From Escherichia coli O127:H6 str. E2348/69 (GTDB lineage: Bacteria > Pseudomonadota > Gammaproteobacteria > Enterobacterales > Enterobacteriaceae): 64,000 nucleotides of DNA. Positions 35,133 to 35,233 of the stretch are shown here, piece after piece. Position numbers and translations under genes: made by a program. The notes under the pieces are model-generated. The model had not been told where the DNA came from, did no database searches, and was given only the letters and a program-made list of their open reading frames with translations. The first letter of the stretch is position 1. Each line of letters opens with the position of its first letter. Location: NCBI RefSeq assembly GCF_000026545.1, contig NC_011601.1; one strand, written 5' to 3'.

Positions 35133-35233
35133 GCCTGATGCGACGCTGCCGCGTCTTATCAGGCCTACAAAACCGAACCGTAGGTCGGATAAGGCGTTCA
35201 CGCCGCATCCGACAAACAGCGCCTGATGCGACG
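35133..35233. repeat. BIME / REP cluster between cpsG and cpsB
   Basis: GCCTGATGCGACGCTGCCGCGTCTTATCAGGCCTAC and GTAGGTCGGATAAGGCGTTCACGCCGCATCCGAC in inverted orientation, plus a partial third copy. Confidence 0.8.

Follow-up and report, generated by a model that had tools for sequence, protein, structure and literature searches.

REP/BIME repeats at the cpsB/cpsG and wzc/wcaA junctions of the Escherichia coli colanic acid operon

Described intercistronic repeats and post-wzc attenuators

Classical examples of REPs between cistrons are those of malE-malF and hisJ-hisQ. The E. coli REP and BIME-2 classes of Gilson, Bachellier and Hofnung are characterised by the Y/Z2 consensus, GTAG/CTAC ends, alternating orientation, extragenic position, multiple copies and a variable number of units, and the repeats of the colanic acid operon described here share all of these features. 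Roles of REPs as mRNA stabilisers and attenuators have been reviewed (PMC12306157), there is precedent for the mechanism by which they act in mRNA (PMC6061677), and their effects elsewhere are context-dependent and variable (bioRxiv 10.64898/2026.03.23.713779). REP325, in the yjdMN operon, was described as an upstream mRNA stabiliser and a partly Rho-dependent terminator, and tandem gene pairs separated by REPs were found to be upstream-biased genome-wide (median log ratio 0.96 vs -0.09) (bioRxiv 10.64898/2026.03.23.713779). The colanic acid operon likewise carries REPs between genes that plausibly share a transcript, upstream-biased expression being the feature of REP325; it differs from that system in adding ops/RfaH anti-termination, which should blunt Rho-dependent attenuation.

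A stem-loop attenuator following wzc was reportedly described by Rahn and Whitfield in 2003 for group 1 capsule clusters. A "stem-loop transcriptional attenuator immediately after wzc" has been stated for the colanic operon (PMC2516531), and an analogous stem-loop lies between wzc and wbaP in Klebsiella (PMC3438125). The attenuators of the group 1 capsule, Klebsiella cps and colanic clusters and the wzc/wcaA repeats analysed here have in common the boundary between export and glycosyltransferase genes and an operon under RfaH/JUMPstart control, and a stable stem-loop is present in the gap directly 3' of wzc in our sequence. This stem-loop is a REP in the E. coli colanic clusters, an unrelated palindrome in other genera, and missing from 11 of the 79 species compared; that it lowers transcription of the downstream genes, with relief by RfaH, is stated in the literature. 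According to Iguchi et al. (2011), indels that contain REPs occur at wcaK-wzxC and at cpsG-cpsB, a REP at wcaA-wzc is conserved in all their strains, and some REPs coincide with recombination junctions (PMC3158064). The copies described below lie at the same three junctions (cpsG-cpsB, wcaA-wzc, wcaK-wzxC) and show the same indel behaviour. Earlier publications thus already cover the REPs at both junctions together with their indels, as well as the proposal of an attenuator past wzc.

Two repeat clusters and the algC leader of cpsG

The stretch of DNA analysed (64,000 nt, hereafter the window) contains the E. coli colanic acid operon (wza→wcaM) on the minus strand. The genes flanking the two junctions, all on that strand, are: cpsB, encoding mannose-1-phosphate guanylyltransferase (35235-36671), and cpsG, encoding phosphomannomutase (33672-35042, ATG at 35042-35040); wzc, encoding a tyrosine autokinase and closing the wza-wzb-wzc export block (45727-47889), and wcaA, encoding a glycosyltransferase, the first biosynthetic gene past that block (44710-45549). 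All four were defined as open reading frames; over segment 34800-35500 the window shows 100% identity to several RefSeq E. coli chromosomes that are annotated there as cpsB and cpsG, and over segment 45530-45760 to strain E2348/69, annotated as wzc and wcaA. The operon leader upstream of wza carries a JUMPstart/ops element, the RfaH loading site (49659-49697, minus strand; Rfam RF01707, 57.3 bits vs a gathering score of 35). No terminator-like site, of the type hairpin followed by a U-run, was found on the minus strand at the cpsB/cpsG or the wzc/wcaA junction, and the RfaH ChIP signal of strain CFT073 spans wza-wcaM (PMC9765446). The earlier note on this DNA had placed both junctions within a single transcription unit, which is plausible given the ops upstream of wza, the lack of a sense-strand terminator at the junctions and the RfaH ChIP signal.

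Full REPs were searched for with the pattern GATGCG-N8-16-CTTATCMGRCCTAC, the gap being variable because the loop lengths of Y and Z2 differ (a fixed spacing matched one copy only), and the expectation was obtained from 100 shuffles. Six matches were obtained in the window, against an expectation of 0.00; the two clusters account for four of them. The copies show the REP consensus head GCCKGATGCG and the tail CTTATCMGRCCTAC with terminal GTAG/CTAC, the head of two of them being GTCGGATGCG (one mismatch). The four full copies of the clusters are imperfect palindromes of ~34-36 nt that fold into stable hairpins, and all copies are extragenic, between a stop codon and the next start codon. They belong to a dispersed family: by megablast, a 171-nt query covering the cpsB/cpsG junction has a median of 11 matching places in each E. 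coli genome. Consensus, fold and position agree, and the REP/BIME clusters that had been proposed at cpsB/cpsG and wzc/wcaA are indeed present, at 35133-35233 and 45613-45715. The RefSeq features of MG1655 for this region carry no REP annotation. Neither cluster contains a match to the IHF consensus WATCAANNNNTTR, and assignment to the BIME-1 class was rejected on this ground. Rfam also returned the REP325-derived naRNA4 at 35101-35256 and 45603-45738; these sub-threshold hits (31-40 bits vs a gathering score of 59.5) reflect REP similarity rather than a gene and were discarded.

The cpsB/cpsG gap is 192 nt long (35043-35234). In the mRNA, the UAA of cpsB is followed by an A, a half Z2 REP of 13 nt (CGUCGCAUCAGGC; 35233-35221, a direct repeat of 35133-35145), a 7-nt linker and the Y REP (35213-35180, reading GUCGGAUGCGGCGUGAACGCCUUAUCCGACCUAC); then come an 11-nt linker, the Z2 REP in inverted orientation (35168-35133, reading GUAGGCCUGAUAAGACGCGGCAGCGUCGCAUCAGGC), 36 nt, the algC motif (35096-35047), 4 nt and the AUG of cpsG. 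Both full REPs, on the minus strand, were identified by consensus match. The Y REP, whose onset is 21 nt past the cpsB stop codon, is the first full hairpin downstream of cpsB (-19.2 kcal/mol, z -5.1) and the Z2 REP the second (-20.5 kcal/mol, z -5.1); the fold of the entire junction has a z of -4.9. The half Z2, separated from the cpsB stop codon by 1 nt, can base-pair with an arm of the Y REP in the minimum-free-energy fold and bounds a unit of 88 nt (Y, Z2 and linkers; 35133-35220, minus strand) that was delimited by allele comparison. A Y REP followed by an inverted Z2 is the BIME-2 arrangement, and the cpsB/cpsG cluster is a BIME-2.

The wzc/wcaA gap is 177 nt long (45550-45726), and its mRNA order is: UAA, 11 nt, a Z2-like REP (45715-45680) joined tail-to-tail to a truncated, inverted half Y REP (45679-45662, CUUCACGCCGCAUCCGGC), 15 nt, a full Y REP inverted with respect to the Z2-like copy (45646-45613), a 63-nt leader and the AUG of wcaA. 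The Z2-like REP, beginning 11 nt past the wzc stop codon, is the first hairpin downstream of wzc (-19.4 kcal/mol, z -6.4); the full Y REP (-19.5 kcal/mol, z -4.0) is the counterpart of the one REP present in the K-12/O157 allele, and both are minus-strand consensus matches. The entire junction folds with a z of -4.7. Unlike a typical BIME, this cluster has, besides a full Y, a Z2-like REP with a truncated Y attached to it, and in the window it is a hybrid of two commoner alleles. The sequence 3' of the REPs on the sense strand is not U-rich at either junction. A further, smaller structure is possible at the end of wzc, where the final codons (45733-45742) hold the REP-head-like GTCGGATGCG, able to pair with CGACATCCGC past the stop (45716-45726) in a small hairpin across the stop codon; K-12 has a different small hairpin there, UGCGAA/UUCGCA.

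Downstream of the BIME-2, the 5' leader of cpsG matches the algC RNA motif (35047-35096, minus strand; Rfam covariance model RF02929) over its full length (model positions 1-52 of 52; 77.3 bits vs a gathering score of 33.8), ending 4 nt before the ATG of the phosphomannomutase gene. A hairpin with a T-run had previously been proposed on the plus strand at 35069-35100: the inverted repeat and the T-run are present on that strand, but the element is the minus-strand algC leader, the T-run being the complement of the conserved A-rich 5' segment of the motif. The motif consists of a small hairpin followed by the invariant tail ACUGUUGCCUGAARAAGGG, which includes the Shine-Dalgarno sequence. Conservation was assessed in 55 cpsB/cpsG gaps, that of the window and those of 54 enterobacterial species, anchored on the tail and with the upstream 26 nt folded. 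The tail, as TGYTGCCYGAA, is kept in 50 of the 55 sequences, and all 50 have a hairpin directly upstream, whose stem occurs as 22 distinct arm pairs (for instance UGGCC/GGUCA, UCUCC/GGAGA, GGCUC/GAGUC and CCACGGG/CCCGUGG); several of these stems use G-U pairs workable on the sense strand only. Alignment of the cpsG leaders with MAFFT followed by RNAalifold gave just one helix, a 4-bp GGGC/GCCU that is invariant and shows no covariation, the small hairpin not being registered because of indels. The GCCU could pair with either the upstream GGGC or the AGGG on the Shine-Dalgarno side; the GGGC, GCCU and AGGG columns never vary.

The window element is thus a member of RF02929, with a full-length match, a covarying hairpin and a position directly before a phosphomannomutase gene. 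The motif is also intact in all the E. coli junction alleles examined. Being kept across species with a covarying stem and intact in the E. coli alleles, the algC leader, and not the BIME, is by comparative sequence evidence the conserved, presumably regulatory element of the cpsB/cpsG gap, and belongs to cpsG. The placement of the Shine-Dalgarno sequence in an invariant single-stranded tail suggests translational control or a binding site. To our knowledge, a function of the algC RNA motif has not been described so far.

Other elements of the window were recorded alongside the operon. Further REPs or BIMEs lie outside it, at 7722-7802 (a REP pair just downstream of the his operon), 52114-52150 (a single Z2) and 60571-60654 (a Z2+Y pair), and a histidine operon leader was identified by Rfam at 471-594 on the plus strand. 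The O-antigen cluster contains a second gmd-fcl-gmm-manC-manB set (16685-22089, minus strand), and the O-antigen operon is preceded by its own JUMPstart (24208-24246, minus strand; 52.5 bits, compared with 57.3 bits for the colanic one). Protein identities between the O-antigen and colanic copies are 100% for fcl, 96.5% for gmd and 95% for manB, and this near-identity suggests gene conversion between the two sets. The O-antigen manC and manB genes directly adjoin each other, with practically no gap between them and neither an algC motif nor a REP, providing a natural contrast to cpsB/cpsG.

Junction variation among strains and species

The polymorphism of the junctions was surveyed in 5,426 complete E. 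coli genomes. At cpsB/cpsG, the 88-nt Y+Z2 unit is present in zero (K-12), one (window), two (YPE3) or three (I2) copies. In K-12 MG1655 the gap is 104 nt long, the unit is missing and the half Z2 is the sole REP remnant; the position of the missing unit is flanked by the 13-nt direct repeat CGTCGCATCAGGC. The exact K-12 junction, with no unit, occurs in 795 of the 5,426 genomes and a window-like junction (at least 80% of the 171-nt query) in 3,279, while the cpsG 5' region including the algC motif is found in 4,658. The BIME is missing from K-12, the standard model strain for colanic acid, and from about a quarter of the cps-carrying genomes. Other variants are MS20658, which has a truncated Y only, and STEC309, with a REP-free gap of 101 nt. 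The variation in unit number is classical BIME-2 copy-number variation.

At least three alleles exist at wzc/wcaA, and their frequencies were estimated in an even-step sample of 50 records. Allele A (K-12, O157, NC101; ~58% of the sample) has one inverted Y REP 24 nt past the stop; allele B (GN06489, WGS1363; ~16%) has a Z2-like REP 11 nt past the stop plus a half Y; allele C, that of the window (~22%), is a B/A hybrid joined within the shared CACGCCGCAUCCGGC. At least one full REP is kept in every E. coli wzc/wcaA allele sampled. The wzxC/wcaK gap is a third polymorphic BIME site of the colanic operon: it measures 71 nt in the window (30672-30742), with no REP, and 275 nt in K-12 (positions 6406-6680 of the K-12 locus), with four REPs in the order Y-Z2-Y-Z2. 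Sequence comparison shows that the zero to three units at cpsB/cpsG and the A/B hybrid at wzc/wcaA are the products of recombination between the repeats themselves.

For the comparison across Enterobacteriaceae, 80 loci were fetched via WcaA and 14 junctions from wza to cpsG were measured (~55-79 species per junction). In twelve of the 14 the genes are tightly packed (median at most 25 nt), and the only open ones are wzc/wcaA and cpsB/cpsG. The cpsB/cpsG gap is always at least 53 nt (median 109 nt). The wzc/wcaA gap has a median length of 103 nt and a median folding energy of -0.45 kcal/mol per nt; it is strongly structured and at least 50 nt long in 68 of 79 species. Its occupants differ between genera: a REP-like sequence in 18-19 species (Escherichia, Citrobacter, Salmonella), a CCCTCTCCC..GGGAGAGGG palindrome in 39-40 species (Enterobacter, Lelliottia, Kluyvera, Phytobacter and others) and some other strong hairpin in 10 species (including Kosakonia and Franconibacter). 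In the remaining 11 species (Cedecea, Leclercia, Silvania, Pseudescherichia vulneris and others) the gap is just 10-28 nt long and has no hairpin. No U-tract follows the wzc/wcaA hairpin in the examples inspected across species.

The palindrome has a wider distribution. The GGGAGAGGG-type family is itself dispersed, and 35 more copies lie elsewhere in the fetched loci; in the form CCCTCTCCC..GGGAGAGGG(TTAGGGTGAGGG) it was found in Enterobacter, Lelliottia, Kluyvera, Phytobacter, Buttiauxella and others, where it occupies the wzc/wcaA gap, ~10 kb into the loci, and it also widens the wcaF/gmd gap, ~15 kb into the loci, in 13 of 66 species.

Selection for a hairpin could produce the pattern at wzc/wcaA, and so could a permissive gap in which palindromic repeats collect; the species compared are phylogenetically non-independent. 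A stronger version, in which wzc/wcaA is a selected "hairpin slot" for which unrelated palindrome families were recruited convergently, fixing the ratio of Wza-Wzb-Wzc to the glycosyltransferases, while the E. coli REP alleles and copy numbers tune the output of colanic acid, is speculative and in our judgement improbable.

Possible roles of the repeats

These are ordinary dispersed REPs, polymorphic by repeat recombination, and we consider it probable that they exert a generic REP effect that is modest at wzc/wcaA and dispensable at cpsB/cpsG. By analogy with other operons, each REP, in the mRNA a hairpin of about -19 to -20 kcal/mol without a U-tract, would act as a barrier to 3'-to-5' exonucleases and protect the RNA upstream of it (wza-wzb-wzc in one case, the segment ending in cpsB in the other). 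The REPs would in this way fix the steady-state 3' ends left after Rho termination or RNase E cleavage further downstream. They may also cause some Rho-dependent attenuation of read-through, most of which would be expected to be suppressed by RfaH loaded at ops. The net outcome would be an expression tilted to the upstream genes, favouring wza-wzb-wzc over the glycosyltransferase genes at wzc/wcaA. Such a stabiliser/attenuator effect is the standard REP role and is plausible in the colanic operon; that it is measurable at wzc/wcaA seems to us an even bet. Any effect at cpsB/cpsG would be dispensable, given that K-12 and other strains are without the 88-nt unit. In the literature we found neither mapped 3' ends of transcripts nor transcript coverage for the cpsB/cpsG and wzc/wcaA junctions. 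The retention of a REP in all the sampled E. coli wzc/wcaA alleles, together with the filling of this gap by unrelated palindromes in 68 of 79 species, could indicate stronger selection than a modest generic effect implies; conversely, 11 of 79 species are without any hairpin at wzc/wcaA.

A more ambitious reading makes both BIMEs adaptive regulators, setting through mRNA stabilisation or attenuation the ratio of export to biosynthesis and that of the upstream genes to cpsG. Several observations agree with it: the stem-loop attenuator stated for the colanic operon (PMC2516531) and for Klebsiella (PMC3438125), the genome-wide upstream bias of tandem pairs separated by REPs (bioRxiv 10.64898/2026.03.23.713779), the REP that follows wzc in all sampled E. 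coli alleles (see also PMC3158064), and, in 68 of 79 species, a structured wzc/wcaA gap whose occupants comprise at least two repeat families unrelated to each other, plus other hairpins. The cpsB/cpsG junction argues the other way, its BIME ranging from zero to three units and being missing from K-12 and about a quarter of the cps-carrying genomes. At wzc/wcaA itself, the gap of 10-28 nt without a hairpin in 11 of 79 species weighs against such a role. In the operon generally, there is no U-tract after the REPs and hence no intrinsic termination, RfaH should suppress Rho-dependent attenuation (PMC9765446), and palindromic repeats may just build up wherever a gap is tolerated. Adaptive regulation at both junctions seems rather unlikely, although it fares better than the readings that follow.

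The repeats might instead matter at the level of DNA only, as gyrase sites (BIME-2) in an operon of ~20 kb, as recombination junctions on the flanks of the hypervariable O-antigen locus, or as both, and have no meaningful role in RNA. The combination of Y with Z2 REPs and the lack of an IHF consensus agree with BIME-2, gyrase is reported to bind REPs and REP indels to coincide with recombination break points around the O-antigen cluster (PMC3158064), and the junction alleles themselves are products of repeat-mediated recombination. Against this, an effect on RNA is hard to avoid for repeats transcribed within the operon as very stable hairpins, and their presence/absence polymorphism speaks against a required gyrase site; an exclusively DNA-level role is, in our view, unlikely.

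Less likely again is an effect on translation, by which a REP hairpin within 15 nt past a stop codon would stall the terminating ribosome and lower the yield of the upstream protein. According to the summary in PMC12306157, Liang et al. (2015) reported this distance rule for the REPs of E. coli. Because its first REP lies 11 nt past the wzc stop, the window allele would then reduce rather than favour Wzc, and allele B has the same 11-nt spacing; at cpsB, the half Z2 abuts the stop codon and can, as noted above, base-pair with the Y REP. The common allele A of K-12 and O157 has a spacing of 24 nt, so that the effect would be allele-specific at most, and the first full REP of the cpsB/cpsG gap lies 21 nt past the stop.

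That the REPs are intrinsic (Rho-independent) terminators dividing the cluster, and the hairpin and T-run at 35069-35100 a plus-strand terminator, can practically be dismissed: the hairpins are stable and a T-run does follow the inverted repeat at 35069-35089 on the plus strand, but none of the REPs has a U-run after it on the sense strand, neither junction has a minus-strand terminator-like site, and 35047-35096 is a minus-strand match to the covariance model of algC, its T-run being the complement of the A-rich conserved 5' part of the motif and the G-U pairs of its stem in other species working on the sense strand only.

The reading as ordinary dispersed REPs with a modest generic effect carries little weight beyond correct annotation, and its value is corrective: the cpsB/cpsG gap holds a dispensable BIME of zero to three copies and a sense-strand algC leader, and the wzc/wcaA gap is widely conserved and structured, with repeat families that differ from genus to genus. 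If it is true that REP alleles shift the ratio of export to biosynthesis, they would be a simple natural source of strain variation in colanic acid production, and would also offer a convenient tuning knob for engineering.
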